A stretch of DNA of 64,000 nucleotides from an uncultured bacterium (GTDB lineage: Bacteria; Chlamydiota; Chlamydiia; Chlamydiales; 2-12-FULL-49-11): the NCBI GenBank assembly GCA_964552055.1, contig CAZKFL010000003.1, positions 21,614 to 85,613 of the forward strand. Direction: 5' to 3'. Positions 2,483 to 60,023 of the stretch are shown here, piece by piece (position 1 is the first letter of the stretch; the number at the start of each line of letters is the position of its first letter). The notes beneath the pieces are model-generated. The model searched no databases. It was not told the DNA's origin and saw nothing but the letters and a program-made list of their open reading frames with translations. Made by a program: the position numbers and the translations under genes.

Positions 2483-3097
2483 CTATATAATTTTCAATAA
2501 AAGCAATTGGTTAAATACCTTTTCATACTCCGCGAGCGTCATTGCTTTTTTCTCTTTAAATGATTGCATCACGGGTGCGTCTTGTAATTGAATCTCTCCA
2601 TCCTTTTCAGTGATCACTTGAAAACGCTCTTTTTCTGCAGGGCCTCGCACAATAAGACTTACCGTGTTGGGCTCTTCGATAATGGAATGATATTGAGAAT
2701 GATGCAATGTATAGCAGCTTCCTATATTTTCATGCCGAATCATGGCAGGAGTTAGGCAATATTTCATTGTTGTAAGCTGTTCCATTCGATAAATAGTGTG
2801 GTGATAGCCTCCGGAAAGGATTCGTGTTGAAAAATTCCAACGATGATTGTGAGCCCTTCCAATATCGATTTGATCTTGAGCGTTAACTTTATTGGGGTGG
2901 CCCGAATAAACATGTAGCCGAATCTGCATTTTTTTATCTTCGCTATTCCACAATACCAGCTTATCGACTCCCTCATAATGGACAGAATGAGAAAAGAGTT
3001 CCTCATTCTTTGGGATATCTAAGACAAGTTTGCGAAGTTGAGTGAGAGTCTTACGGGATAGCTCTTGAGCTATATTACTAAATTCAAAAAGTTTCAT
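2483..3097 (-). CDS. hypothetical protein, possibly a cupin-like metalloprotein; last gene of the riboswitch operon
   Basis: His-rich beta-strand motifs (GRAHNHRWNFSTRILSGGYHH ... YTLHHSQYHS) resemble cupin HxH...H metal sites. A 4-nt start/stop overlap with the upstream gene at 3094-3097 suggests translational coupling. Confidence 0.55.
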   Translation of the reverse strand: MKLFEFSNIAQELSRKTLTQLRKLVLDIPKNEELFSHSVHYEGVDKLVLWNSEDKKMQIRLHVYSGHPNKVNAQDQIDIGRAHNHRWNFSTRILSGGYHHTIYRMEQLTTMKYCLTPAMIRHENIGSCYTLHHSQYHSIIEEPNTVSLIVRGPAEKERFQVITEKDGEIQLQDAPVMQSFKEKKAMTLAEYEKVFNQLLLLKII

Positions 3098-3846
3098 GAC
3101 CTACCAATCCTATCAATTAAAATTACGGAGGCGATGTTATGTATGATAAGGGAGAGGGCGCTAAGAGGCCATCCCCGATAGATTTTGAAGATCCCATTTC
3201 GAGTAAATAAGTGGGATGGAGAAATATTTTGTGCCTGTTTCAGGGTGTTTGCGATATCGAATGGGGCGGATAGCAGGCTTACAATAAAAGCGACTTGGAC
3301 ACCGATTTTGACTAGTTGCGAAAGAGGTAAAGACCCTCCTGATAAAGCAATCGATTGTTCTCTAAGGTATTTTTGAGCTATTAAAAAAGCAGTCCAAGTC
3401 ACAGAAAGTTTAGACCAATTGGTGCTAAACCCGTCCCATCCATTTTTAAGAGAAAATTTGCTTGTTCCTCTAAAAGCAGAAATAATTTTGGCTCTTTCTA
3501 AAGGAGTCCCGATAGCAGCGTCAATTGTAGCGATCGATAAGCCAGTAAGAGCAAGGCCTGGAAGATTTTCTATTTTGTAGCTCTTTAAAAGAGGGGGTAT
3601 GCCAGTAATCATAGGCCAGCACCAAATTTGTTTTAAGCTGGTTTTTACTAATTGGGGAGCAAGCCCTTTATAAAAAGCTGCTAGTCCTTCTTCACGAAAC
3701 AATGTTAAAGCTACTTGAATACAATTCGATTCAGGTAGAGCGCATTGCTGACGGATTTTGACCACTTCCATGGGGAAAATGAGTGTGTGTACAGTTATTC
3801 CCCTTGCGACTCCCCATAAGCTACTTGATAATAAATCGTTACTCAT
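3094..3846 (-). CDS. mitochondrial carrier family (SLC25-like) membrane transporter
   Basis: Three spaced carrier signatures Px[DE]xx[KR]x[KR]-like: PMEVVKIRQQ, PLERAKIIS and PFDIANTLKQ. They sit ~85 aa apart, each following a hydrophobic helix. There is a 4-nt overlap with the MFS gene. Confidence 0.75.
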   Translation of the reverse strand: MSNDLLSSSLWGVARGITVHTLIFPMEVVKIRQQCALPESNCIQVALTLFREEGLAAFYKGLAPQLVKTSLKQIWCWPMITGIPPLLKSYKIENLPGLALTGLSIATIDAAIGTPLERAKIISAFRGTSKFSLKNGWDGFSTNWSKLSVTWTAFLIAQKYLREQSIALSGGSLPLSQLVKIGVQVAFIVSLLSAPFDIANTLKQAQNISPSHLFTRNGIFKIYRGWPLSALSLIIHNIASVILIDRIGRS

Positions 3847-5087
3847 AAAGCTTTTTCCGGTTTTTTAACTTTGGACATCATGATGATTCCACTACTCGCT
3901 AGGCCTAATATCATCCAGTGCCAGGAGGCGCTTGCTACCATTCCTGTTTTTTGAAAAGACCAAAGAGCCAAAGCTGCGGTAGGGCTGCCTATCGCTTGAG
4001 AGCCTAATGCATATCCCAGAGAAATAATGGCATAACGAGCATTTGAAGGAACAAGCTGGCTAGCCCAAGCATGAAATGGGGCAAAAAATGCAACACCAAT
4101 AACAACGAAGGCTGCTCTCACTGCAATAAGCAAAGGAAGGGATGCGCCTTCTAATAACAAAAACAGTGGGATTGCTAATAAAACAACACCCAAAGAAGCA
4201 GATAACATCAACTTCTCTCTTGACATTCGGGAGGCCACCCACCCAAAAAATGGTAGGGCACAAAAATCAAAAATGAGCAAATACGTGTTGATTCTCATCA
4301 CTTCTGCTTTTGTAATTGTTGATATGAGGGGAATAAACCCATTCATTAAAACTAATGCTATAGAATAGCATGCAGAACCAAAACCGGAGCAAATCACAAT
4401 GAATAGAAGAGCTTTTCTATGCGTCCAAAGAGTGCTCTTTAAATTTGTGAGCGTTTGGGAAAACTTGATCGGTTCTCGAGAAACTGGAGCAGAACGCCTA
4501 AATATGCAGCCAAAAAGCGCTGTTGCACAACCACATAAATAAAGCAGTCGCCATCCCGGATCTATAAAATTATACCTAGCAAGGAGGAAAACTCCAAGCG
4601 ATGCTAAAAGATGGCCGCCAAGAGTAGATGCGTTATAAAAACTACTGAGTAAATCGTGCCGTTTTTCAGGGGAGTTTTCCAAAAGAAAAATCGCCCCTCC
4701 CATTGTCTCTCCCGCTGCCAAAAAGTTTTGAAAAACCCTTCCAAAGAAAAAAATCAAAGGAGCTAACATGCCAACTTGAGCGTAAGTAGGGCTCAAAGCA
4801 ATACAACCCGAAATCAACGACATTCCTGCTAAAGTTAAAAATAGAGCATGTCTTCTTCCATAAACATCTCCAATATAACCAAATACCAAAGATCCAAGAG
4901 GACGCGCTAACATTCCTAATGGGATAATCGCATACGTCAAAATCAGCGCAGTAAGCGGGTCTTTGTTCGGAAAAATTAAGGGGGCTAGAAATGGAGATAG
5001 GAACCCAAAAAGAGCGGTATCATAATGCTCAAAAAGGTTGCCTAAACATGCATTCCAAAGTTGGAAACGGGATGTAGATGTAGGCAT
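3843..5087 (-). CDS. MFS transporter (metabolite:H+ symporter / ProP-like subfamily)
   Basis: About 12 hydrophobic helices and the loop 2-3 motif GFLARPLGSLVFGYIGDVYGRR. I prefer the ATG at 5087 (MPTSTSRF..., AAGGAG 8 nt upstream) over the TTG at 5132 used by the track. Confidence 0.9.
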   Translation of the reverse strand: MPTSTSRFQLWNACLGNLFEHYDTALFGFLSPFLAPLIFPNKDPLTALILTYAIIPLGMLARPLGSLVFGYIGDVYGRRHALFLTLAGMSLISGCIALSPTYAQVGMLAPLIFFFGRVFQNFLAAGETMGGAIFLLENSPEKRHDLLSSFYNASTLGGHLLASLGVFLLARYNFIDPGWRLLYLCGCATALFGCIFRRSAPVSREPIKFSQTLTNLKSTLWTHRKALLFIVICSGFGSACYSIALVLMNGFIPLISTITKAEVMRINTYLLIFDFCALPFFGWVASRMSREKLMLSASLGVVLLAIPLFLLLEGASLPLLIAVRAAFVVIGVAFFAPFHAWASQLVPSNARYAIISLGYALGSQAIGSPTAALALWSFQKTGMVASASWHWMILGLASSGIIMMSKVKKPEKAL

Positions 5088-5097
5088 ATTTGAATCT

Positions 5098-5124
5098 CCT
5101 TGGTAAAAGATAAAACCACCAAGG
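5098..5124 (-). promoter_or_regulatory. candidate Shine-Dalgarno-sequestering helix (expression platform of the TPP riboswitch)
   Basis: In the mRNA, CCUUGGU pairs with ACCAAGG across a 13-nt loop. The 3' arm overlaps the AAGGAG SD of the MFS gene. Confidence 0.45.
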
Positions 5125-5170
5125 GGAAGCAATAAAAAGAAATATGGAAAAAAGACTCTTCTTATACATT

Positions 5171-5256
5171 CACTCTTCCTACGCCAGCACTACCCGGTTC
5201 AGGTGTAAGGGACTCTCTCAGCTAAGATTGCCTATGACAACTTAGCACCCCTGGTG
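5171..5256 (-). promoter_or_regulatory. TPP (thiamine pyrophosphate, THI-box) riboswitch aptamer
   Basis: The reverse strand reads CACCAGGGGUGCUAAG...CUUAGCUGAGAGAGUCCCUUACACCUGAACCGGGUAGUGCUGGCGUAGGAAGAGUG. This matches the conserved GGGGUGC, CUGAGA, ACCUGA and GCUGGCGUAGGAA blocks of the E. coli thiM/thiC class. It lies 84 nt upstream of the MFS start. Confidence 0.9.
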
Positions 5257-5309
5257 TTTAAAATGAGACAAGTGTATATTTTCATCGATATTTTTAGCAA
5301 AGGAGAAAT

Positions 5310-6107
5310 ATGGATCAAAAAATCTATAAAGAATGGATTGCAGGAGTCTTTGATAGATCTGCCAATAAATATGGCGAAGGGAGCAATTGTTTTTTTGATT
5401 ACTTTGCTAAAGAGCTTGTTAAATTTGCAAATTTGCCACGTGGGGCGACTGTTTTAGATATTGCCACAGGTAGGGGGGCAATTCTTAAAGAGATATTGGA
5501 AAGCATTGGCACAGAAGGTAAAGTTGTAGGCATTGACATTAGTTCTAATATGATTGCGGAGACTAAGCAGAGGTTTAATTATCCTAATATCGATCTAATC
5601 TGCATGGATGCTGAAAATTTGAAGTTTGAAGATGCATCATTCGATTATGTCTTTTGTGGCTTTGCTCTTTTTTTCTTTCCCGATTTGCAAACAGCTTTAA
5701 AGGAGATTTTGAGGGTTCTTAAGCCTCGAGGCAAGTTGTTTATTTCTACCTGGGGAGAGGGGGATATCCAAGATCAAGCTTTTGATGATGTGTATAAAAA
5801 ATTTGAATTAAATGTGAAAACTCTCAAACACGATTTAAGCAATGCTAATGAGATTGAAAAAAATTTAAGGGCAATCGGATTTAAAGAGATAGAAATTGTT
5901 CCAAAAGAATTAGACCACATCTATCCAACTTTTGAAGATTGGTTTAATTCTCTATGGGATCATGCTGGCCGTGCTAAACTTGAAAAATGTAGCCCCGAGC
6001 AATTAATGGAATTACGTCATGATCTTGAGTCTATATTAAAACCCCATCTAAAACCAGATGGCTTGCATGAGATACTTCGTGCCAATTTTGCCACAGCAAC
6101 AAAATGA
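5310..6107 (+). CDS. class I SAM-dependent methyltransferase (UbiE/COQ5-like, Methyltransf_11 type)
   Basis: Motif I VLDIATGRGA, followed by VVGIDIS, DAENLKFEDASFDYVF and LKPRGKLFIS. Confidence 0.85.
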   Translation: MDQKIYKEWIAGVFDRSANKYGEGSNCFFDYFAKELVKFANLPRGATVLDIATGRGAILKEILESIGTEGKVVGIDISSNMIAETKQRFNYPNIDLICMDAENLKFEDASFDYVFCGFALFFFPDLQTALKEILRVLKPRGKLFISTWGEGDIQDQAFDDVYKKFELNVKTLKHDLSNANEIEKNLRAIGFKEIEIVPKELDHIYPTFEDWFNSLWDHAGRAKLEKCSPEQLMELRHDLESILKPHLKPDGLHEILRANFATATK

Positions 6108-6123
6108 GGCTAAGTAGAATATA

Positions 6124-6975
6124 ATGTTTACAATGACAAATGGTGCTCAAATTTTTTACAAAACCTTTGGTAAAGGAGATCCGATCATTCTGGTTCATGG
6201 CGGTCCTGGACTAAGTCATGATTATCTATTACCTTACTTGGCTAAACTTGCAGAGACGAATCTTGTTATCTTTTATGACCAACGTGGCTGCGGCCTATCA
6301 ATGGATGAAATCAATTCAGATTCCATTCAGATTGAAACATTTGTAGAAGATCTTGAAGCAATAAGAAGTGAGCTTGGACTTAAAAAGATAACTATACTGG
6401 GTCATTCATGGGGAGGCTTTTTGGCAATGAAGTATGCTATTGCCTATCCTGAATTCGTTCATAAGTTAATTCTATTAAATTCATTGCCTCCATCATCAGA
6501 CGAGTTTTCCTTATTCAGGCAAGAATGGGCAAGTCGAATGGAGTCTTATCAGGATGAAATTAAGCAGATTATGGAAACTCCAGAATTTGTCAAAGGAGAA
6601 GAATCGACCACTCAAAAATACTATCAAACCATTTTTGGAAGGTATTTCTATGATCCTGAGAAAGTAAAGCTCCTCAATCTAGAGATGAAACCAGATGCTT
6701 TTATCAATGGGCAAAAGGTTTATGCAATATTTAGTCAGAATCTACTTTCTAAACCTTTTAATCTTCACGATCAACTTAAGAGACTCGATATCATCACGTT
6801 AATAATTCACGGAGATTCAGATCCAGTTCCTCCTTCCACAGCTCAAAAGCTCCATGAAAGCATTCGTGGCTCTAAATACCATTTAATCAAAAATTGTGGT
6901 CATTTCCCCTTTGTCGAAACTCCGGATGAGTTATTCTTGCATTTAAATAACTTCCTTAGAAATGATTATGATTAG
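6124..6975 (+). CDS. alpha/beta hydrolase, proline-iminopeptidase-like (S33)
   Basis: HGGPG oxyanion motif, GHSWGG nucleophile elbow, and late Asp/His residues (GDSDPV, CGHFPF). Confidence 0.85.
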   Translation: MFTMTNGAQIFYKTFGKGDPIILVHGGPGLSHDYLLPYLAKLAETNLVIFYDQRGCGLSMDEINSDSIQIETFVEDLEAIRSELGLKKITILGHSWGGFLAMKYAIAYPEFVHKLILLNSLPPSSDEFSLFRQEWASRMESYQDEIKQIMETPEFVKGEESTTQKYYQTIFGRYFYDPEKVKLLNLEMKPDAFINGQKVYAIFSQNLLSKPFNLHDQLKRLDIITLIIHGDSDPVPPSTAQKLHESIRGSKYHLIKNCGHFPFVETPDELFLHLNNFLRNDYD

Positions 6976-6989
6976 AAAAAGGGTGTTTT

Positions 6990-8039
6990 ATGATTGAACA
7001 AAAGGTTTGTCTTGCGAGTGATAATTGGACTCCGGTGCATCCTTTAGTGATACAGGCTGTAATCGAAGCAAATGTTGGATATGCTCCTTCTTATGGATCT
7101 GATCCGTGGACTGAGGAAGCTGGAAAGTTAATTCAGTCAGCTTTTAAATCTAATTGCAAGGTCTTCATGGTTCCAACGGGAACTGGTGCAAATATCATAG
7201 GACTTAAACTTAGTTGCCACAGGCACGAATCGGTTATATGTACCGACATTGCACATATTCACTATCAAGAATCTGGTGCTGCTGAATCCATTATTGGTTG
7301 CAAACTCCTAACCGTTCCCCATCAAGAGGGAAAAATTACTCCGGATACGATAGTTAAAAAATTAATAAGTGAACGAGCATTTGGTAAGCATTCTACATCT
7401 CCTCGTGTTTTGTCGATTACTCAGCCGACTGAGGTAGGGACTGTCTACAGTTTAAAAGAACTTGAGGCTTTGTCTAACTTGTCCAAGAAAGAAAATTTAC
7501 TTCTCCACATTGATGGAAGTCGCCTTTATAATGCAGCAGTTAGTTTGAATATTTCTTTAAATGAGATGATTCATGCAATCCGTGTAGATATTTTATCGCT
7601 TGGAGGCACTAAAAATGGATTAATGGGCGCCGAAGCTCTTCTTATCTTTAATCCTGATCTCTATGAAGGAAGCGATCATTTGCATAAGCAAACCCTTCAA
7701 CTTTTATCAAAAATGCGCTACCTTTCCGCTCAATACATCCCTCTATTTAAGAATAATTTATGGCATACACTTGCCACAAATGCAAATCAAAGAGCTTTAG
7801 AAATTGCGCAGGTAATCAAAAGCATTCCTCAGCTTTCTTTAAGTTATCCAGTTGAGTCAAATCAAATCTTTTTTACCGCTCCCGCTTCTTGGATACCCTT
7901 AATTCAAAAAAAACTCTCTTGCTATCTTTGGAACAGCGAAAAAAATGAGGTTCGTTTTATTACTTCATGGAACACTTCTGAACAAGATGTAATTGACGTA
8001 AAATTAGCGTTTTCTGAATTGGCGCATAACCTAGTTTAA
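6990..8039 (+). CDS. PLP-dependent threonine-aldolase / beta-eliminating-lyase family enzyme
   Basis: Fold-type I layout with TGTGANI, HIDGSRL and the PLP-lysine motif SLGGTKNG, typical of low-specificity threonine aldolases. Confidence 0.75.
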   Translation: MIEQKVCLASDNWTPVHPLVIQAVIEANVGYAPSYGSDPWTEEAGKLIQSAFKSNCKVFMVPTGTGANIIGLKLSCHRHESVICTDIAHIHYQESGAAESIIGCKLLTVPHQEGKITPDTIVKKLISERAFGKHSTSPRVLSITQPTEVGTVYSLKELEALSNLSKKENLLLHIDGSRLYNAAVSLNISLNEMIHAIRVDILSLGGTKNGLMGAEALLIFNPDLYEGSDHLHKQTLQLLSKMRYLSAQYIPLFKNNLWHTLATNANQRALEIAQVIKSIPQLSLSYPVESNQIFFTAPASWIPLIQKKLSCYLWNSEKNEVRFITSWNTSEQDVIDVKLAFSELAHNLV

Positions 8040-24661: not shown

Positions 24662-27550
24662 ATGGTAAATAGTATGAGTGGTGATTTTAGATTAAGTGTT
24701 AGAGCTGAAGGACATGACTATCAATTTAGTTTAATCGAAACCACTCCTGATGAAGCAGATGTCACTTTGAATGGCGTTAGTTATTCTCTTACCACAAGTT
24801 CTGATAATGAGAGAATTAAACGAATAGTATTAGCTCATGTAGGCCTTCCCAAAACAGTGGAAGGATTAGTCAGAAATATCAGACATATTGATGGGATTGA
24901 AGAAGTTTCTTTTACTCCGATTGCGAAAACACATGCTGTTGCGGTATCTTCGCTGGCAGCTAAAGAAGCTGCTCCTGTTACTGCTGATCGAATTCAAGCG
25001 GCACGCGCATATTTGGACAAATTAAGAAGCAACCCTAGATTTTCAGGGGTTGTTCTAATTGGGGTTGGGGATGATATCGTGGCAGAGGAAGTTTTCCAGT
25101 CAGATAGTGTTGCCCAGAAACCGATCACGACTTCTATGCCATGGAATATTCAATCTATGGGTAAAAAATTCACTGAAGTAGCTATTATGCAGCTTGTTGA
25201 AGAAGACCTGATCAGTTTAGACACCCATATTCGTGATATTTTAACACTTGAAGATACTCAGTTGACCGATGCAGGGGAGTTTGAGCGCTTGTCTGGAGAA
25301 GATGATGGTGCTTGTTTACTCTCCTCTTCAGTGACAATAAGAGATCTATTAACGCATCGAGGAGGATTGGTAGGAGGATTTGAAGCTCCAGCACAATTTA
25401 TTTCTGAAGAAGTGGGAAAATACCACTACTCCAATCCAGGGTTTGCATTACTTGCTAAGGTTGTGGAAAGAGTGACTCATAAAAGTTTTGGTGATTATGT
25501 TAATGAGTATATTTGGAGGCCCTCAGGTATTACAGAATCTGCGAAATTTATTCACGAAGTGCCAAAAGCTAGTGATATTGCCGATCATTTCGTCTCTTCT
25601 ATGGTCGTAGAAGATATTAGGCCAACAAGTGCCACACCATCTCCTGCACATGGATATGGCTGTTTTTGGATGATGCCAAAGGATATGTGTAAATTTGCAT
25701 TGGCACTCGCAAACGGTGGGTTGTTTAAGAAACCAGAGACTGAAAAAATCCTTCACACACAAATATATGGTTGGGAACCTTCGTCTGACGAATTCCCTCA
25801 TTCGGGATATACATTTAATGGAAGAAGTCGTGATGCTTCATCACATTGTAGTATTGTTACCCAAAGAGATTTCCCAGATGCTCCAATTGCGGCTGTGGTT
25901 TTTTCAAATTTTACATTGGGAGCAGATGCAGGAGATGATATAATGCAAGCTTTATGTAACTTAAAATCTGTTCAATCTCTTAAAAAACAAGAAGAAGGAA
26001 TTGCATTTCTACAAAATCTTTTACAACTGCAAACAAGACAAGATAGGAAGGTTCTTCTTCAGGAATTTTTATCTACAAATCCAAATCCGAGTTATTTTTT
26101 TGACCTTAGCAGAACCTTGTTTGATAGAGGGCGAAATGACCTAATATCAGAAATAGCGGAAGGTTTGCCAAAAGAACTAAGGGATGATATATATACAGAT
26201 TTCAGCACTATTCCTGAACTTGTGGAAGTGGCTAAGTTATTTAAGTCTCCCGAAAGAGTAGCTGCTGAAAAAATGGATAGCTTATCCGAGTCAATGGCTA
26301 GAGAGGCATTTTTTTCGGGGTCGGTGCTTGTAGAAAAGGATGGTAAGGTGCTTCTTTGTAAAGGGTATGGAATGGCTACGGATTCGGTACCGAATGATTC
26401 ATCTTCTCGTTTTTATATTGCTTCTACAAGCAAACAATTTACAGCTGCCGCAATTATGAAACTTCAAGAAGCGGGAAAGATAGATCTACATAAATCAATT
26501 AATAACTATCTACCACCTGAATATCAATCTGAAAAATGGGAGGATGTTACTGTTCATCATCTTTTATCGAACACGTCAGGATTATATGATTTTCAAGATA
26601 CAGAAAATTTTGAAGAAAGATCTCGCTCTTTGACAGTGGATCAGATGATAAGAGAAGAAAAGGAGAAAGATTTAGAGTTTACGCCTGGATCTCAATTTGC
26701 ATATAGAAACGTGGGATATGAAATCCTTGGCAGTATTATTGAGCATGTTAGTGGAATGGCATATAGAGAATATCTATTGGAACATATTCTTATTCCTGCA
26801 GGAATGATCTCTTCAGATGTTCAAAGAGATGTCCACGAACTCGATCCTAGCACTTCTATTGGATACAAGTTAGATGATGAAGCAACAACGCTTGTTAAAG
26901 TCGTTCCAAAAGAGATTCGGCTTTTTCGTGCTGCTGGAGGTATTATATCAACTGTATCCGATCTAGCGAAATGGAGTCATGTACTCGATGATGGAGGGAG
27001 TGTTTTAAAAAAAGAATCGGTTGCCTTAATGACTACTCCAAATATAGATCATTATGGGTATGGGCTTGCTGAGATTGAAATGGGAGGAAAGAGGGTAATT
27101 CAGCATAATGGCGGTTTATCTGGCTATGCTTCCACATTTTGCAAGTATCCTGATGACAATCTTTTTATTACAATTTTGTCTAACAATCAATCAGTTGCAC
27201 TTGATAATCTTGCGGGGCGATTTGTAAATATTCTTTCTAATCCTGATAGTGTATCTGTTGAAGCAGTCCCTGCAGAAGGTATTGATTTATCCAAATTTGT
27301 TGGAATTTATAAATGTGAAGCAGAACCATTTCAATATAATTTTTCTCTTTCTTCGACGGGTAGATTGAATGTCGTGGATGTTTCCGGAGAAAGACCCTCT
27401 CCCATTTTTCACACATGCCTTTTATCTAATGGACACGTTTTTGTTCCTGAGATAGGACTTGAATTTGAAAAACGGGCCGATAGCAAAATGTATATGTATC
27501 ATCCTACGCAGAGTGATCCTATTGATGTTTTAAATCCTATAGAAAAATAA
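24662..27550 (+). CDS. 962-aa protein with two beta-lactamase-fold serine hydrolase domains
   Basis: Two SxxK sites (QSMGKKFTE and IASTSKQFTAAA). The second domain is closely similar to 23129..24658 (WEDVTVHHLLSNTSG, DLAKWSHVLD). Confidence 0.85.
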   Translation: MVNSMSGDFRLSVRAEGHDYQFSLIETTPDEADVTLNGVSYSLTTSSDNERIKRIVLAHVGLPKTVEGLVRNIRHIDGIEEVSFTPIAKTHAVAVSSLAAKEAAPVTADRIQAARAYLDKLRSNPRFSGVVLIGVGDDIVAEEVFQSDSVAQKPITTSMPWNIQSMGKKFTEVAIMQLVEEDLISLDTHIRDILTLEDTQLTDAGEFERLSGEDDGACLLSSSVTIRDLLTHRGGLVGGFEAPAQFISEEVGKYHYSNPGFALLAKVVERVTHKSFGDYVNEYIWRPSGITESAKFIHEVPKASDIADHFVSSMVVEDIRPTSATPSPAHGYGCFWMMPKDMCKFALALANGGLFKKPETEKILHTQIYGWEPSSDEFPHSGYTFNGRSRDASSHCSIVTQRDFPDAPIAAVVFSNFTLGADAGDDIMQALCNLKSVQSLKKQEEGIAFLQNLLQLQTRQDRKVLLQEFLSTNPNPSYFFDLSRTLFDRGRNDLISEIAEGLPKELRDDIYTDFSTIPELVEVAKLFKSPERVAAEKMDSLSESMAREAFFSGSVLVEKDGKVLLCKGYGMATDSVPNDSSSRFYIASTSKQFTAAAIMKLQEAGKIDLHKSINNYLPPEYQSEKWEDVTVHHLLSNTSGLYDFQDTENFEERSRSLTVDQMIREEKEKDLEFTPGSQFAYRNVGYEILGSIIEHVSGMAYREYLLEHILIPAGMISSDVQRDVHELDPSTSIGYKLDDEATTLVKVVPKEIRLFRAAGGIISTVSDLAKWSHVLDDGGSVLKKESVALMTTPNIDHYGYGLAEIEMGGKRVIQHNGGLSGYASTFCKYPDDNLFITILSNNQSVALDNLAGRFVNILSNPDSVSVEAVPAEGIDLSKFVGIYKCEAEPFQYNFSLSSTGRLNVVDVSGERPSPIFHTCLLSNGHVFVPEIGLEFEKRADSKMYMYHPTQSDPIDVLNPIEK

Positions 27551-39641: not shown

Positions 39642-41984
39642 TCAGCTCTTTTCTTTTAGTGTGGATAAGGGTCTATCAAATACTAGAGAGATGGTTTGAT
39701 TAGATGGACCGTTGCGATTTTTAAGAACAACTAAGTCAAGATCAACCATGCGATTCATAGAAGAATCACCTTTGGCATCGGCTGATTCTTTTGCACCATT
39801 CCAAATACCTAAGACAAGTTTTGCATCATTTTCTATGTCGCCCGCTTCGCGTAAGTTATCAAGTCTTAATACTTCTGATTTTGTGGAACCTCTTCCGAGC
39901 TGAGCTCCTAAAATAATAGGGACAGAGTTGAATTTTGCTGTTTCAAGGATGCTTTCAGAGATTTTTTGAAGCTCGAGTTGTCTAGTGGAAGATTTTCCTC
40001 GAAATTTTATTTTTTGGATGTAATCAATAAAGATGGCGCCCATTTTCCCCCGTTCTTTGAGGCTTGCGATTTCTTTTCCCAAGTCATCTACAAAAAATGG
40101 ATGATCGCAAACAACTAGTCGATGAGATTCTGTCCAGGATTGAAGTGTAATGATAGCCTCGTTAATTTTAGGAAGTTTGTTGATGCCCCCTCTGAGATAT
40201 CCCTCTAAATTTGAGAGATTGTTGGCTTCATTAATGCATTCGCCACTAAGGATGTTCAAAATTTTTAAAAGGATCTGATTTTTTGGCTCTTCATAGGAGA
40301 AAAAATAGAATTCGCGATCAGGATATAATTTGACCATGTTTACAAAGAAATTCAATAATGTAGTCGTCTTTCCATGCGAAGGCCTTCCTGCAATGATTGT
40401 GATGGCTTCTTGAGGGATTTGAATGGTCTTATCAATTGACTTGTATCCGGTTTTTAGCCCTTCTTGAATATTTGATAAATCTGCTTTTAGATTATTTACT
40501 GTATATGGCTTCACTTGGAAAGATTTAGGTTTGTCTTCATTTTTTAATTTTGAAAGGAGTTGACTCGCTTTAGTAAGGTCTCCTTCAGAAATGAGTTTTT
40601 GAGTTTCTTCTAAAGATTGTTTGTATTTTTCGGCATCGTCTTGAATTTTTTGTTCTTTTAGTGCTTTTGCAAGAATGTCATCGCTTTCGTTGGGAGCCAA
40701 GTTAAAAATGTCTTCTATCTCTTTTTTAAAAATACTTTTTCGGAATGCATCATCAATTTGAGCATATGCTTTAGAAGCCCCGCCAAGGGCTGAAAATCGA
40801 CCGATATCGGTTGCCAGGTCATATTTATAGGAAAAATAAGATGGAAGCCACCTAACGCGCGCCTTAGCCTTTTCTTCAACAATCCTTTTAAAAGCTTCAG
40901 GACCGTTTGCTTTTACGTATTCATCAGGATCCTTGAATGGAGCTAGTAGATGTGGAGGAAGGATAAATGTTTCAATTCCATTTTTTTCTAAAAGTTCTGA
41001 GGCTTTTTTTGCCTTTTCAATAGATCCTATTTCGCCTTTGCTATCCTTACTGTCGTTGTCAAAAACAATAATTACTCGCTCAATTTCATAAATTTTTAAA
41101 CTTTCAATATGTTTTGCAGATAATTCTCCTTGTCCAGTGGCTGCGATATTTTTTATTCCTAAACATGGAAGATAGGCAGCGTCGGGAAGGCCTTCTACTA
41201 AGATGAGTTGTTTTTGTTTTCGGCATTGGTAAATATTGAAAGGATCGTCTTTTTTAAGACCGGCAGTATAACTCCACCGATGAAGTTTTCCTTCATTATC
41301 AGAGATCCCTTCCTTAATTGTAGCTCTTTTGGCAAATCCAAGAATTTTACCAAATCTATCTCTGTATGGAAGAGCTGCTCTAAATTGATCTCCACCGTTT
41401 CCATTGAGCTTGATCGAAGTTGCTTCATGCTCCCTTTCCTTGGGAAGCTTGGATTTTAAATGTTCTCTTATTTTAGTGTCTTCTGGCCAATAAATCCATT
41501 CGGTAGTCTGAAGTTTGATAGGATCATATCCTCTGACTTCAGTTAAATAGTCGAGCGCTTCTTTTCCTTCTGAAGTGAATAAGAGCTCCTTTCCATATTG
41601 AAAGATCATCTCATAGAGATAGGAAGTTGGATAGGACGATTTTTCAGGGAGTGAAAAATTACCTTTTTGCAGCTCTTCGATTAGATCGGTACGGAATGTT
41701 TCAGCGAGATATTTACAGGCCTCTACAAAATTAAGACCTTTTTCTCTTTGGATAAGCTCAATGATATCAAATGATTCATTGCAGCTAAAGCAATGTAAAT
41801 GACCCCAACCCGGGCCTAACTTGCAACATTGTGAGCTTTTTGAATCGTGACCTGCAATGCAGTTGCCTACTAAATAGCCTCCAACTGATTTAAATCCTAG
41901 TTTATGCCGGAGATCAAGATGGTCGATAACCTCTTCTACTCGTATGGAGGCTTTGAGCTTTTCTTTAGCCAAATTACCGATCAT
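39642..41984 (-). CDS. bifunctional DNA primase / DnaB-family replicative helicase
   Basis: CHC2 zinc finger (CIAGH...HCFSCNESFDIIELI), TOPRIM (LILVEGLPDA ... VIIVFDNDSKD), Walker A IIAGRPSHGKTTT and Walker B AIFIDYIQKI. Confidence 0.9.
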   Translation of the reverse strand: MIGNLAKEKLKASIRVEEVIDHLDLRHKLGFKSVGGYLVGNCIAGHDSKSSQCCKLGPGWGHLHCFSCNESFDIIELIQREKGLNFVEACKYLAETFRTDLIEELQKGNFSLPEKSSYPTSYLYEMIFQYGKELLFTSEGKEALDYLTEVRGYDPIKLQTTEWIYWPEDTKIREHLKSKLPKEREHEATSIKLNGNGGDQFRAALPYRDRFGKILGFAKRATIKEGISDNEGKLHRWSYTAGLKKDDPFNIYQCRKQKQLILVEGLPDAAYLPCLGIKNIAATGQGELSAKHIESLKIYEIERVIIVFDNDSKDSKGEIGSIEKAKKASELLEKNGIETFILPPHLLAPFKDPDEYVKANGPEAFKRIVEEKAKARVRWLPSYFSYKYDLATDIGRFSALGGASKAYAQIDDAFRKSIFKKEIEDIFNLAPNESDDILAKALKEQKIQDDAEKYKQSLEETQKLISEGDLTKASQLLSKLKNEDKPKSFQVKPYTVNNLKADLSNIQEGLKTGYKSIDKTIQIPQEAITIIAGRPSHGKTTTLLNFFVNMVKLYPDREFYFFSYEEPKNQILLKILNILSGECINEANNLSNLEGYLRGGINKLPKINEAIITLQSWTESHRLVVCDHPFFVDDLGKEIASLKERGKMGAIFIDYIQKIKFRGKSSTRQLELQKISESILETAKFNSVPIILGAQLGRGSTKSEVLRLDNLREAGDIENDAKLVLGIWNGAKESADAKGDSSMNRMVDLDLVVLKNRNGPSNQTISLVFDRPLSTLKEKS

Positions 41985-50363: not shown

Positions 50364-51122
50364 TTATGGTGATGGTGGTGCTGAGCCGTTAAACATGATT
50401 ACTTCTGCTATTTGCCCGGCTCCAGTCGTATCAATGTCGGGCGTTCCGTATTCTGCAAAGCAGCCTCCAAATGTTGGATTACTAACATTTCCAGCGTTGA
50501 CGGCTAAAAGATTGGTCACTTCTACTTGCAGATTTCTGAGGTCAAATGGGTTGGATTCAAATGGTGAAACATTAAGCAGTTCGATGATTGGATCTCCACT
50601 GAATACAAAAGGGAGGGAAACTCCATAAGTTGCTGTAATAGTGGTGTATTGAACGGCTGCCGGACTTACTGATTGAAGAGCCGAAACCAGGGTTTCTGGA
50701 GGAACGGAGAAAGTGGTGCCATCTGTATCCATTTGGAAGGCGGCTGGATAATATTCGTGGTATCGGATTTTTGTCGCTTTAGTCAAAAATTGGAGAACAG
50801 CGATTACTTCTTCAGGAGTGCCATTCGATTTGTTGATGAAAATTTGAAATTTCAACTTCTCCTTATAATCATCATCAGACTCATCGGGCAGGCGGCTTAG
50901 CCCTAAAATTTGTCCAAGACCATCGAGTTGAACGCCAACAGATGTATCAATTGCCCGATTAAATTTTAGCGTTTGATTGACATCATCTATCTCTTGAAAC
51001 TGAGTGACAAAAGCCTGGATTAATTTCTGGAATCGGTTATAGTCTCCACCTAATAAGCTTTGTTGAAATTGACTAGCTAGAAGGACGATCGCTCTTTGAA
51101 CATGGTTAGAAATCAATGTCAT
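50364..51122 (-). CDS. baseplate wedge-associated protein (P2 gpI / DUF2612-like)
   Basis: LDGLGQILGLSR...ESDDDYKEKLKFQIFINKSNGTPEEVI pattern, positioned directly after Baseplate_J. Confidence 0.55.
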   Translation of the reverse strand: MTLISNHVQRAIVLLASQFQQSLLGGDYNRFQKLIQAFVTQFQEIDDVNQTLKFNRAIDTSVGVQLDGLGQILGLSRLPDESDDDYKEKLKFQIFINKSNGTPEEVIAVLQFLTKATKIRYHEYYPAAFQMDTDGTTFSVPPETLVSALQSVSPAAVQYTTITATYGVSLPFVFSGDPIIELLNVSPFESNPFDLRNLQVEVTNLLAVNAGNVSNPTFGGCFAEYGTPDIDTTGAGQIAEVIMFNGSAPPSP

Positions 51123-53104
51123 ACAGTCACCGTGATGCGCGATGGATCAAATATCGCAATTTCATTTTCTTGGATGGGGATGTCAGAGGTGTCATAAAGA
51201 GGGCTGTCGCCTGGGCCATTCGTTGCGGCGATTTGCATAGCTCCGCTTGCAATTCCAGGGATGGTGAATATTTGGGCAAGAACGCGCTGTAAAAGAACAT
51301 CGACGCCAATCCCAAGATCATTACCGTAAGTATTGAGAGCTTCTGCTACTAAGTCTTGCCCATTCGGAGGGAAGGTCTCTTCGGAATAGAGAGTCAATGT
51401 AACTGTAATCCAAATGTAAATCGGAGTAGGTCTGCTGAAATTGATAACTTGCTGCTCGCCTTGTGAGTCGGTGACGGTAAAGGACGTATTGCCGAATGTT
51501 TCGATCCCAGCCGGTTTTGTAAGCCAGATTTTAGTTGCAACGTCAGCATCAGAACCTCCTTCCACGACTGCTTCGAAACTTTTTGCGAGGCGACCACCTT
51601 TAAATACAGCTTGTGCTTGACTTGCACCGCCTGTAACTGCAAATGTTGTAATAGAGACTTCAACAGCTTCGTTCATGGATACTGTGATTGTCAGATTTGC
51701 CGTTCCGCCTACAATAGCAGAAGCAATTTGAGGTTGATTAGATAAGACGATTGCTATTGCATTCATCGTATCTAGATGTGAAGTTGCAAATGTGATAATC
51801 GGAAGAGTTTGAATTGTGTTAAAAACAATTGTGATTGTATTTCCAGTGACTAAATCTTGATTCAAAACGATATTAATTGGTTCTTGAGTCATTGTCCTAT
51901 TTTCAAAAATAAAAGCAGAGGTAACTCCTAGAACTTGTTGGAGAAGCCTTGCTCTAATGGACTCTACGGTTCCTGCTCCTAAAAGACGGATAGAGTTATT
52001 TCTTCTGATTCTAAGTTCTGCATCTGTTTCAATTAGACGGCCAGTCACCCCAGCCTTTGGGTTATTGATTGAATTCCAACCAGAAATAGGGGTGAGGATT
52101 TCGACCAATGTATTGATAGGAGCGGCAATGGGGGCAAAGTCTTGTGATAGAAAAGTAATGGGGGAAGATTGAGAGGAGATACTTAAATTCGTTCCAACGC
52201 TGATGGAAAAAGGCACATCGGGGTCATTAGCTATAATGGATAGACTTCCTATTAGGTCTGTTGCTAATATGGAGGAAATTGTCGTATTGATAATACTTGT
52301 TAAATTTTGAGAAATTGCATTGACTGTGGGTGCATCAAAAGTTACAGCATAGGTTGGTTGTGATGCACCACCGGTTATAACAATCGAATTAATGACAATA
52401 TTTTGTCCGAGCACAGGGATGATACTGATAATATTAGGGTTTGTCGGTGTAGCAGATAGGACATTAGGATTAGATGCGATTGCCATGGCTAGATCAGTAA
52501 GTGTTTGATTATTATCTGTATCAAATGGAACAGCTGCTAATGTAGTGCCATTAAGAGTTGCTATAATCGAATTCCCTGTGACAAAACTCCCTGTAAAAGT
52601 GATGATCGGAAGCGAATAGGTGAGAGCCTGATTATTAATGATGGTAGTGTAAGATTGTGGTGCTGATGATCCAACCTGAATGGTTACGGATGCTGCATTG
52701 GATTTTGTGATAAAGCTATCAGATTGGCAGAAAAAAACTGCGCCGGTATCAGTAATTCTAGCTAAAGATCCTTGATTGATGAGAGTTCCTTCTAGTCCCG
52801 CGCAGACAGCAGTAACATTTGTTTGTTGAGCCGCAAGTCTTGTAATGGCATTTAATTGGACAACATTATCTAAGCTAATCCCTTCAGCAGAATTAGGGTA
52901 TTGGCTAAAATAGACGTCTTGCATATTTTCCCAGATATCAGCCTGAACTTTTGAGATTACGCCGATCAATTGGCCAAAGATAGATTGGGGATCAAGATTG
53001 ATTTCGCCAAAAGCAGCTATTAAAAGATTTTGATTTTCTGCCTGGATATCAGGAAGTCGTTTGATTTTAAATCCTTGTGGAGTTAGCCCGAATGGAGATG
53101 TCAT
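51119..53104 (-). CDS. Baseplate J-like protein with large inserted decoration modules
   Basis: The N-terminus GFKIKRLPDIQAENQNLLIAAFGEINLDPQSIFGQLIGV...QYPNSAEGISLDN is typical of gpJ/gp6. It is 661 aa, with inserts at residues ~150-310 and ~415-500. Confidence 0.8.
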   Translation of the reverse strand: MTSPFGLTPQGFKIKRLPDIQAENQNLLIAAFGEINLDPQSIFGQLIGVISKVQADIWENMQDVYFSQYPNSAEGISLDNVVQLNAITRLAAQQTNVTAVCAGLEGTLINQGSLARITDTGAVFFCQSDSFITKSNAASVTIQVGSSAPQSYTTIINNQALTYSLPIITFTGSFVTGNSIIATLNGTTLAAVPFDTDNNQTLTDLAMAIASNPNVLSATPTNPNIISIIPVLGQNIVINSIVITGGASQPTYAVTFDAPTVNAISQNLTSIINTTISSILATDLIGSLSIIANDPDVPFSISVGTNLSISSQSSPITFLSQDFAPIAAPINTLVEILTPISGWNSINNPKAGVTGRLIETDAELRIRRNNSIRLLGAGTVESIRARLLQQVLGVTSAFIFENRTMTQEPINIVLNQDLVTGNTITIVFNTIQTLPIITFATSHLDTMNAIAIVLSNQPQIASAIVGGTANLTITVSMNEAVEVSITTFAVTGGASQAQAVFKGGRLAKSFEAVVEGGSDADVATKIWLTKPAGIETFGNTSFTVTDSQGEQQVINFSRPTPIYIWITVTLTLYSEETFPPNGQDLVAEALNTYGNDLGIGVDVLLQRVLAQIFTIPGIASGAMQIAATNGPGDSPLYDTSDIPIQENEIAIFDPSRITVTV

Positions 53105-58142: not shown

Positions 58143-60023
58143 TTAAGCGCTTACGGTTCCAGTAATATTAATGGCGTGTATGGCTCCTGATAATGTTGCC
58201 TGGAATTTGACATTCCTTAAAATTCTCTGAGCTTTGTCATTTGGTGGGACGTTTGCTGCTAATGGAACTGTTACAGTTGGAGCGGGATCATTTGCAATAA
58301 AGTTATTATTGATTCCAAGTTGAAGAGCTCTCCTCACTTCTGCTTCAATTGCTGTGATTCCAGCATCAGTATAGGGAACTTTATTACTATTGACCAATAC
58401 AGAATAGACAAATTCTTGAATTCTGGAAGTTAACCAATCTACACCACGAACGATATCAATGAATTCTCCTTGGGCAACTGTGCCTTCTCTTGTGATTCCT
58501 ACGCCTCCAATGAATTCGTAAGTGTTGGCTTCTTTATTTCTGGCATTTTGCGATTGCGTAGTTGTGAGATTGGAGTAAGAGATGGAACTCAGTTGTTTAA
58601 ATTTCCAAGTTTCAGACCCTGGATCAAGGGGAAGGACTCCACCGAACCAGGCACATTCAGGAAAGTCGGTTTCAGCATCTTGATGATAGAGAACAAATGT
58701 GCGCACATATCCAGATTGATTACATTTAGCTGCAATGGAAGAAAGATCGATACCAGCGGCTACATTGATAATATTGGGATCATCTGAGGCTGTTCCAAAG
58801 AGTTTAATTTGACTCTCTGCCCACCCTGCCGCTGAAAAAACTGTTGCTAGAGTTCTGTCTGTGAGAGCAAATGCGTACCAAGTGTCATCAACTAATTGTA
58901 CTGCATTTAAGTCATTTACAACGGTGTCAGAAGGGGTTAATGGACTAATAATCAGGCCAAACTGCTTACTTAGAATACCGTCTGATACGCCTAAAACAAA
59001 GCCTGTTCCAGGAACGTTTGCTGTAACTTCAAAACTTCCATTTAGATTGTCTGAAGCACTTACTGGAACAGATGTTTGAGAAGAAATAATTGCAACAAGA
59101 GCTGCCACAATATCTTCATTGGTCTGAACATCAGTTAAGGTGGTATATGTGAAGTCGATTCCATTGATAGTCACGGTATAGTCTGTGTTGGGTTCTACTT
59201 GAGTAACTGTAATGCGGGCAGCATCTGGGTTTACAATGCTTGAATTTACATTTAATGTGTAAGGAGTTCCTGGAATGGCAGCCGTTAAGCCGAAAGTTCC
59301 ATTTAAATTATCAGTTGCTGTGACTCCAAGTGTTGCTGCATTAATAGCAGCTACTAACGAGTTAGCAATTGTTTCAGGGGAAACCGGTTGAGTTGGTGTT
59401 GTGGTGGTAGCTGTTGGTTGACTAGCGCCTCCAGTGACAATAAAAGAATTAATAATTGCTGAAACATTTGATTTTCCGAACACATTGATTATCAGATTTG
59501 AACCAGTGATACTTACGGAATCAACGGCAGCATTTGCCTCTAAAGCTGTTGCAATATCGTTCATTGTAGTGATTTGATCAGTATCAAAAGGAATAGAAGT
59601 TAATGAAGTGCCGTTTAAAGTGATTGCAATAGAGTTGCCTGTAACAAAATTTCCGCTTAAGGTGACTATTGAGTTTTGAGCAGTAGGTGCAGAAGGTACT
59701 GTAATGTCTGTTGAGTTGATGGTAGTTGTATAGTTGAAGGGAGACATAGCAGTCTCCACAGAAATTGTAGCGCTATCGACGGTTCTGCGACCAATTGCTA
59801 TTTGTTCAGGGCTTAATGTTTGGCTAAAAGATTCTTGTGCAGCAATGTATTCTAAGTCTGTTGGGAAAAAGTCATTGGCTACGCCCTGAATGTTGCTGTA
59901 GAATCTAATGCGATCATTAAATCGTTTATGAGTACCCAAAATCATGAGGAGTCCAAAACCAGCTTCTGAGACAGCTTGAGTATCACGGGTAATCTGTACA
60001 TTTACGATGTCGCTTAATGGCAT
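58143..60023 (-). CDS. contractile tail sheath protein (DUF3383-like) with ~270 aa of inserted decoration modules
   Basis: The N-terminus [24 protein letters not shown]...RIRFYS and the C-terminal core are typical for a sheath. The insert spans residues ~90-360. Confidence 0.7.

Follow-up and report, generated by a model that had tools for sequence, protein, structure and literature searches.

A short mitochondrial-carrier-family protein encoded in a TPP riboswitch operon of environmental chlamydiae

Introduction

What a protein of the mitochondrial carrier (SLC25) family does in a bacterium is the question raised by the 64,000-nucleotide stretch of Chlamydiales DNA analyzed here (assembly GCA_964552055.1, contig CAZKFL010000003.1, positions 21,614 to 85,613), which is called the window throughout. 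In the open reading frame (ORF) list of the window, three minus-strand genes are tightly packed, and the second of them encodes such a carrier. The carrier fold is generally regarded as all but restricted to eukaryotic organelles. The original prediction, made from the sequence alone, recognized the family, set the protein beside the Legionella effector LncP and left it unclear whether it acts in the bacterial membrane or is exported to a host organelle. The carrier gene was found to lie in an operon headed by a thiamine diphosphate (TPP) riboswitch, an element that the original prediction had not noticed, and this genomic context favors the bacterium's own uptake pathway over a host organelle. 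The LncP-type framing is not favored, as the riboswitch, an adjoining transporter of the major facilitator superfamily (MFS) and, often, a thiE gene point to a thiamine-related metabolic role.

A TPP Riboswitch Operon Conserved in Chlamydiota

Rfam model RF00059 matches the DNA ahead of the operon over its full length (model positions 1-105 of 105; 58.5 bits, gathering threshold 54.3; E = 6.6e-9), and this TPP aptamer, 70 nt upstream of the MFS start, is the sole Rfam match across the 64 kb window. Among orthologous aptamers, compensatory changes occur in 9 of the 20 predicted pairs, in P3 as well as in other stems. Both the sequence and its minimum free energy (MFE) fold predict a hairpin, CCUUGGU (5124-5118) pairing with ACCAAGG (5104-5098), which covers the Shine-Dalgarno sequence AAGGAG (5101-5096). 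The segment CCUUGGUGG might alternatively pair with the aptamer 5' strand CACCAGGGG, and this would give mutually exclusive on and off structures, as is usual for a translational TPP switch. An analogous helix sequestering the Shine-Dalgarno sequence is predicted in the leader of a related locus (L009). A scan 3' of the aptamer found no intrinsic terminator, and since the U-run there lacks a convincing stem, translational control is favored.

Far from being a unique case, the carrier is one of a large chlamydial family whose members came here from Chlamydiota metagenome-assembled genomes (MAGs) only; Mito_carr proteins listed by Pfam in "a few Chlamydiales" had already been noted (PMC5621508). 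A collection of 5.8 billion proteins contained 129 relatives of about 245-285 residues, the only named one from a Rhabdochlamydiaceae MAG, with PF00153 present in all 120 listed, and a profile search of 1.84 billion cluster representatives yielded 157 clusters at 50% identity (E<=1e-30). A one-genome-per-species scan provided 26 loci, from MAGs that bear the labels Chlamydiae, Chlamydiia, Chlamydiales or Parachlamydiales or, wrongly, those of other phyla. The 24 loci that hold family members, at 38-70% identity to the window carrier, are the basis of the conservation counts that follow.

An MFS gene stands directly upstream of the carrier in 21 of these 24 loci, so that what had been taken for a normal bacterial MFS pump is better described as a conserved partner behind a TPP riboswitch. 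The riboswitch itself can be evaluated in 23 loci, L021 being cut at the MFS start, and 19 of these have one upstream, in the orientation of the operon. Sixteen aptamers reach the gathering threshold (L001-L007, L009-L011, L013, L014, L016, L019, L020, L023), two are weaker (L008 and L015, E<1e-4), and the one in L012 is represented by its 3' half only, at the contig edge. A thiE-like gene (PF02581, E = 3e-23; best model TIGR00693 thiE with 101 bits, under the model's cut-off of 145) separates the riboswitch from the MFS gene in 14 loci, and with L018 the operons that contain such a gene number 15. It is missing from the operons of the window, L006, L014, L019 and L020. Two loci would tie the carrier itself to thiamine, beyond its neighbors: in L009 the carrier gene comes straight after the riboswitch, with neither MFS nor thiE, and in L018 it comes straight after thiE, with no adjacent MFS. 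The linkage holds down to about 38-45% protein identity across the 24 loci. Operon structure, riboswitch presence and the conservation of both are established by these comparisons.

The genes 3' of the carrier vary (DUF4258, COX2-like, esterase, glyoxalase, GNATs, another MFS, Dxr, NUDIX), and as they are not conserved, the core is taken to be riboswitch-[thiE]-MFS-carrier. The idea that thiD, thiM or other thiamine genes adjoin the operon was rejected, as the downstream genes differ by locus. In L026, a very divergent carrier (24% identity, 323 residues) still follows an MFS gene product that is 61% identical.

Several individual loci have peculiarities of their own. In L008, a long inverted repeat (5788-5950) between MFS and carrier gives sub-threshold matches to plant microRNA precursor models. 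In L023 (3968-7784), a bin whose label, Acidobacteriota, is probably wrong, each of the four genes (thiE, MFS, carrier, cupin) is broken up across several frames, from either long-read indel errors or decay of the operon. In L022 (147-560), the Acido-Lenti-1 RNA motif occurs upstream of thiE-MFS-carrier in several copies, of which one scores above gathering; this is the only thiE-containing locus with its MFS where a TPP riboswitch was undetected. In L003, a NUDIX hydrolase gene (6737-7189) overlaps the carrier end and is not conserved elsewhere; some NUDIX enzymes act on damaged thiamine diphosphates.

A Shortened Carrier with Three Repeats

Pfam model PF00153 (Mito_carr) matches the carrier with 66.5 bits (cut-off 22.3; E = 1.8e-18), and two stretches of the protein pass separately; a scan with NCBIfam gave no matching model. 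When the protein was compared with solved structures by sequence and by hidden Markov model (HMM), only repeat 1 aligned (UCP2, E = 3.9e-7), and the family profile likewise met Ggc1 over repeat 1 only (E = 1.2e-14), repeats 2 and 3 being divergent. The threefold repeat was assessed by cutting the family alignment into thirds and comparing their profiles with hhalign. The three thirds share one register, with the P of Px[DE] aligned on P and the G of [YW]xG on G, and pairwise P-values range from 1.6e-4 to 6.8e-4.

The AlphaFold2 model, built on a 35-sequence alignment, has six long helices, a predicted local distance difference test (pLDDT) value of 87.3 and a predicted TM-score (pTM) of 0.84. 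Its short matrix helix is present in repeat 1, absent in repeat 2 and reduced in repeat 3, which would account for the short length of the carrier. In Foldseek, the top match of the model is UCP1 (8hbv; E = 2.7e-9, query TM-score (TMq) 0.80), followed by carrier-fold subunits of Tetrahymena complex IV at ranks 3-4 and the carboxyatractyloside-inhibited ADP/ATP carriers 4c9h and 1okc; TMq to UCP1 and the ADP/ATP carrier spans 0.67-0.80, and no other Foldseek match was significant. By its predicted structure, the protein is confirmed as a genuine member of the mitochondrial carrier family, with three repeats, six helices and the SLC25 fold. The original prediction had also remarked that the protein, at 250 residues, is shorter than canonical carriers, and had proposed a Mito_carr search and a comparison of an AlphaFold model with the ADP/ATP carrier. 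The analysis agrees with it on length, and both checks came out in its favor: neither of the outcomes it had named as refuting, a lack of Mito_carr hits or a topology at odds with six helices in a threefold repeat, was observed. The gene is bacterial; its riboswitch operon is of the dense prokaryotic kind, its homologues are on Mb-scale Chlamydiota contigs, and complete or Mb-scale MAGs with the operon include OY970369.1, CAWHDP010000002.1 and CAWDGI010000003.1.

Compared with SLC25 proteins such as UCP1, the ADP/ATP carrier and Ggc1, the chlamydial carriers share the three tandem repeats, the six transmembrane helices and the fold, together with the repeat 1 signature Px[DE]xx[KR]x[KR]xQ and the [YF][KR]G motif. 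They differ in length (250-260 residues versus about 300), in the loss or reduction of the matrix helices of repeats 2 and 3, in a PxDxxN motif in repeat 3, in the lack of a cytoplasmic network, in a K-L pair at contact point II and in being encoded in a riboswitch operon.

Degenerate Networks and a Conserved Cavity

The three signatures quoted in the original prediction, PMEVVKIRQQ (P25-Q34), PLERAKIIS (P115-S123) and PFDIANTLKQ (P195-Q204), are indeed present in three in-register repeats; only the first is canonical, repeat 2 being without the second basic residue and repeat 3 having N in place of K/R. The same picture is seen in motif counts over 210 near-full-length family members. Repeat 1 reads PxExxKxRxQ in 100 members and close variants of it in the rest. 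Repeat 2 reads PxExxK in 127 and PxExxR in 27, without a glutamine brace. Of the 178 members with an identifiable repeat 3 motif, 158 have PxDxxN and only one has K, the brace Q204 being retained. As a membership signature, Px[DE]xx[KR] is therefore not present in all three repeats of this carrier family, and two at most of the three salt bridges of the matrix network can form.

No cytoplasmic [FY][DE]xx[KR] network can be recognized in the family alignment, where helices 2, 4 and 6 end in WCWPMITGIP, AQKYLRE (Q158 and R162 invariant, no acidic residue) and ILIDRIGR, respectively. From carrier theory, such a weak cytoplasmic network suggests that strict exchange might not be required of the carrier.

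Assigning substrate-site residues by sequence alignment to solved carriers was dropped, as repeat 1 alone aligns by HMM. The contact points were instead located by register, as the G of [YF][KR]G plus seven, and confirmed by the repeat alignment. Contact point I is K68 (K in 135 and R in 24 family members), contact point II is K146-L147 (KL in 96, KR in 19, RL in 8), and contact point III is S232 (S in 105, A in 23). Strong conservation is seen in the cavity lining (K68, K146, Q73, W75, W77, H236 and N237), and the two conserved lysines among these residues would suit an anionic, phosphorylated cargo.

Carriers of the TPP and nucleotide class have G[IVLM] at contact point II in helix 4 (PMC9311062). 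Since this pair is absent there, orthology of the family with the mitochondrial TPP carriers is not obvious. Human SLC25A19 and yeast Tpc1p share the fold with it and offer a precedent for transport of TPP and thiamine monophosphate (ThMP) (PMC9311062), and a thiamine-related cargo, here suggested by genomic context, would be a further likeness; they differ in that theirs is the G[IVLM] of the nucleotide class (PMC9311062), as against K-[LR] in the chlamydial family.

Ciliate and Endosymbiont Relatives

The nearest eukaryotic relatives found are uncharacterized ciliate carriers, not annotated TPP carriers. They belong to a sister clade of about 290 residues, whose members are the best non-family matches of the profile (E = 1e-33 to 1e-41, full length) and are 25-29% identical to the window carrier. 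This clade includes a Tetrahymena thermophila "carrier protein" (XP_001019963.2), an Ichthyophthirius "mitochondrial carrier protein", a protist transcript of the MMETSP collection, a protein on a bacterial contig with F-ATPase genes, one in a "Caedibacter sp." MAG whose locus also holds a TLC nucleotide transporter, and two tandem carrier genes (5134-5964 and 5964-6857) in a Simkaniaceae MAG (L025). The motifs KQxWxWP/KQxYRWP, PLER[AL]K and PFDxx[NK]T are shared with the chlamydial family, and the sister clade differs in its full-length matrix loops and in a canonical PxDxxK in repeat 3.

An extension of the thiamine link to the sister clade was considered and rejected: no TPP riboswitch was detected at its bacterial loci (Simkaniaceae, Caedibacter-like, L028) even at E 0.1, and none of the sister-clade bacterial loci examined has an MFS or thiE neighbor. 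Sec-type N-terminal signal peptides (MRMYQILLLFILLLGIPFQGHA.., MFKIKKKITSFFLFVSFCYCAQA..) are found in some of its bacterial members (P0303 and P0307; L028, 6001-6909). To judge from these sequences, such peptides hint at insertion of the carrier fold into the bacterium's own envelope in those organisms. The relationships suggest the picture of a carrier subfamily common to ciliates and protist-dwelling bacteria, one chlamydial branch of which may have been shortened and wired into a thiamine operon.

Function and Membrane of the Carrier

Genes behind TPP riboswitches serve thiamine biosynthesis, salvage or transport, for the cell carrying them. Because riboswitch-controlled genes as a rule encode enzymes and transporters for the ligand or its precursors in their own cell, and because of the linkage described above, the carrier very probably functions in thiamine-related transport. 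The preferred reading goes further and places it in the bacterial inner membrane, where it would serve the bacterium's own metabolism; we give this reading a probability of roughly 0.55. Inner-membrane placement is favored by translational coupling to an inner-membrane MFS transporter and, in relatives, to a cytoplasmic enzyme, and the Sec-type signal peptides of sister-clade members also point to it.

The proposed course of events is as follows. An ancestor of this group of environmental chlamydiae would have acquired the carrier from a eukaryote, the nearest relatives being the ciliate carriers. One mRNA with the TPP riboswitch at its head encodes the carrier and the MFS transporter and, in most relatives, a ThiE-like thiamine-phosphate synthase. 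At high TPP, the aptamer would bind TPP and the downstream hairpin would hide the ribosome-binding site, switching the operon off, and at low TPP the operon would be translated. The carrier would then sit in the bacterial cytoplasmic membrane with its "matrix" face toward the bacterial cytoplasm, an orientation consistent with the positive-inside rule, as the three "matrix" loops hold 13 K+R against 7 on the other face. It might import a phosphorylated thiamine compound (TPP or ThMP) or one of the two ThiE substrates, and the remaining moiety, or a different form, would fall to the MFS partner. The switching mechanism, the direction, the substrate and the membrane we infer from these features.

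ThiE takes two substrates and is encoded next to two transporters, which suggests that these bring in the pyrimidine and thiazole moieties or the corresponding phosphates; the operons without thiE fit import of thiamine, ThMP or TPP better. Thiamine or precursor transporters regulated by riboswitches include ThiT, ThiBPQ, PnuT, ThiV, CytX, ThiXYZ, ThiW and MFS proteins of NiaP type. The present operon shares with these a transporter gene behind a TPP riboswitch, often beside thiE, thiM or thiD, and the MFS partner fits the pattern; the carrier differs, being unrelated to them in sequence and fold, with PF00153 as the only family matched.

Several points weigh against an inner-membrane carrier for thiamine compounds. 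The contact residues match no known substrate class and lack G[IVLM]. No riboswitch was detected in L017, L018 or L022, and L024 gave weak matches only. There is no thiE in the window operon or in the whole 64 kb window, and as the window lacks it, no single substrate model fits all loci. No signal peptide was found on the carrier family itself. The carrier helices are only moderately hydrophobic: by crude Hessa sums they are less so than the MFS helices (6.6 against 3.7) and no more so than those of the ciliate and sister proteins (7.6-7.9), and would thus show no sign of adaptation to insertion by the signal recognition particle (SRP) and Sec. Given this likeness to the ciliate and sister proteins, hydrophobicity was dropped as a means of telling inner-membrane from secreted carriers. 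Finally, the only characterized bacterial carriers (LncP, and Lpg1137 by prediction) are secreted effectors (PMC3252375, PMC5621508).

These last points bear on the alternative of export to the inclusion membrane, which derives from the host, with the chlamydial type III system as one possible route. Placed there, the carrier would admit host TPP or thiamine compounds to the vacuole lumen, and the MFS transporter would then take them across the bacterial inner membrane. Such a relay would explain the strict pairing of two different transporters under one thiamine-sensing switch, and it accords with the eukaryotic type of the carrier, with helices as moderately hydrophobic as those of secreted membrane effectors and unlike those of the MFS transporter, with the lack of a Sec signal peptide, and with the precedent of LncP, a carrier that a bacterium delivers into a membrane of its host (PMC3252375). 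However, L009 and L018 have the carrier without an adjacent MFS, and ordinary insertion into the inner membrane would account for the charge bias just as well. To our knowledge, no secreted effector has been found under riboswitch control, which also counts against the relay. On balance it seems unlikely, and more doubtful again is the specific proposal that the carrier is a vitamin B1 gate, in the inclusion or another host membrane, made at TPP starvation and working in series with the co-translated MFS.

Insertion into the host mitochondrial inner membrane, where the carrier would release TPP or nucleotides or otherwise manipulate the organelle, appears quite improbable. LncP and Lpg1137 are likewise carriers from bacteria that live inside protist cells, and their genes were presumably obtained from eukaryotic hosts (PMC3252375, PMC5621508), so that fold and lifestyle agree with LncP (PMC3252375); moreover, the eukaryotic carriers most closely related to the chlamydial one come from protists of the kind that such bacteria inhabit, and mitochondria hold about 35% of cellular thiamine in human cells (PMC9311062). 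LncP differs in being a nucleotide carrier translocated by Dot/Icm, with the canonical threefold signature and a site of action in host mitochondria, whereas the chlamydial carrier is shortened, has degenerate motifs and is encoded in a riboswitch-controlled metabolic operon. Translational coupling to a bacterial MFS and, in most relatives, a position downstream of the cytoplasmic enzyme gene thiE speak against an effector role, and with truncated matrix loops and both salt-bridge networks degenerate, normal biogenesis by the TIM22 route and strict exchange are less readily expected.

A function unrelated to thiamine, whether transport of nucleotides or another cofactor or a non-transport role like that of MTCH2 or the ciliate complex IV subunits, is the least probable of all: contact-point residues of neither the thiamine nor the nucleotide class, the structural Tetrahymena subunits at Foldseek ranks 3-4 and the undetected riboswitches of L017 and L022 would suit it, but the linkage persists among distant relatives across the 24 loci, the L009 riboswitch controls the carrier alone, thiE alone precedes it in L018, and the cavity-lining residues are conserved as expected for a working carrier.

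Genes of the Operon and the Window

The features of the operon are collected in Table 1. As the original prediction had it, the carrier shares an operon with the MFS gene, whose stop overlaps the carrier ATG by 4 nt (ATGA), and the same ATGA overlap joins the carrier stop to the start of the last gene.

Table 1. Features of the riboswitch operon, in window coordinates.
Feature	Position	Strand	Basis
TPP (THI-box) riboswitch aptamer	5158..5262	-	Full-length match to Rfam RF00059; heads the operon
Leader and expression platform	5088..5157	-	Sequence reading and MFE fold; predicted hairpin over the Shine-Dalgarno sequence
MFS transporter, metabolite/H+ symporter type, 414 aa	3843..5087	-	PF07690; TIGR00883-like; probable ATG at 5087
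Short mitochondrial-carrier-family (SLC25-fold) protein, 250 aa	3094..3846	-	ATG-to-stop ORF; PF00153
Cupin-fold protein, 204 aa	2483..3097	-	Last operon gene, in this sub-clade only; invariant His

The MFS protein matches PF07690 with E = 1.1e-18, and its score against TIGR00883 (NCBIfam), 207 bits, is under that model's cut-off of 443. The ORF list puts its start farther upstream, at TTG 5132; the ATG at 5087 is preferred because AAGGAG precedes it and because both the public annotation of an identical contig (414 residues) and the starts of homologues, which align from about residue 14-20, agree with it.

The cupin-fold protein has no Pfam or NCBIfam family match. Its 60 homologues are all unannotated, the named ones coming from Rhabdochlamydiaceae or Chlamydiales MAGs. 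Its AlphaFold2 model (pLDDT 82) has a cupin barrel behind three N-terminal helices, and the best Foldseek matches are thiol, ergothioneine and cysteine dioxygenases (E about 3e-6, with TMq only about 0.44). The histidines H83, H85, H132, H133 and H137 are invariant in the homologue alignment and would be compatible with a 3-His metal site. The gene follows the carrier in L002, L004, L005, L023 and L027 and is confined to close relatives of the window. In L027, a 3.3 kb contig (JACCDY011106647.1, assembly GCA_013566075.1), the riboswitch-MFS-carrier-cupin stretch is identical to that of the window. The contig numbering of this assembly exceeds 1.1 million, which suggests symbiont or contaminant reads within a large, probably eukaryotic, genome assembly.

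Elsewhere in the window, two adjacent plus-strand genes (23129-24658 and 24662-27550) are beta-lactamase/transpeptidase-like (PF00144), the second encoding 962 residues with two such stretches. The minus strand from about 38000 to 64000 carries a phage-like block of many small co-oriented ORFs, including a primase/DnaB-type helicase (39642-41984), Baseplate_J (51119-53104) and a DUF3383 sheath-like gene (58143-60023), and it may be a prophage or a cluster for a phage-tail-like particle.

Implications

The operon brings a known fold and a known type of regulation together in a new combination, in a new host and in remodelled form. In our literature search, no publication was found that ties bacterial carriers of this family to thiamine or to a riboswitch, or that describes TPP riboswitches in chlamydiae; riboswitches were reported to be rare in Chlamydia in an older survey (PMC2258182). 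Transporters for thiamine diphosphate are an acknowledged gap in obligate intracellular bacteria, and in Rickettsia, import has been inferred with the transporter unknown (PMC5615194). The operon, widespread in environmental chlamydiae, names two candidate transporters at once. The ciliate and endosymbiont sister clade also provides a concrete case of gene transfer from host to symbiont followed by remodelling. If the carrier is exported, it would be a metabolite-regulated effector, and if it acts in a relay, a stolen eukaryotic carrier would form part of a riboswitch-controlled two-membrane nutrient relay. Action in the inner membrane, as preferred here, would make it the first carrier of mitochondrial type known to have a native role in a bacterium, and would add a new structural class to the thiamine regulon.

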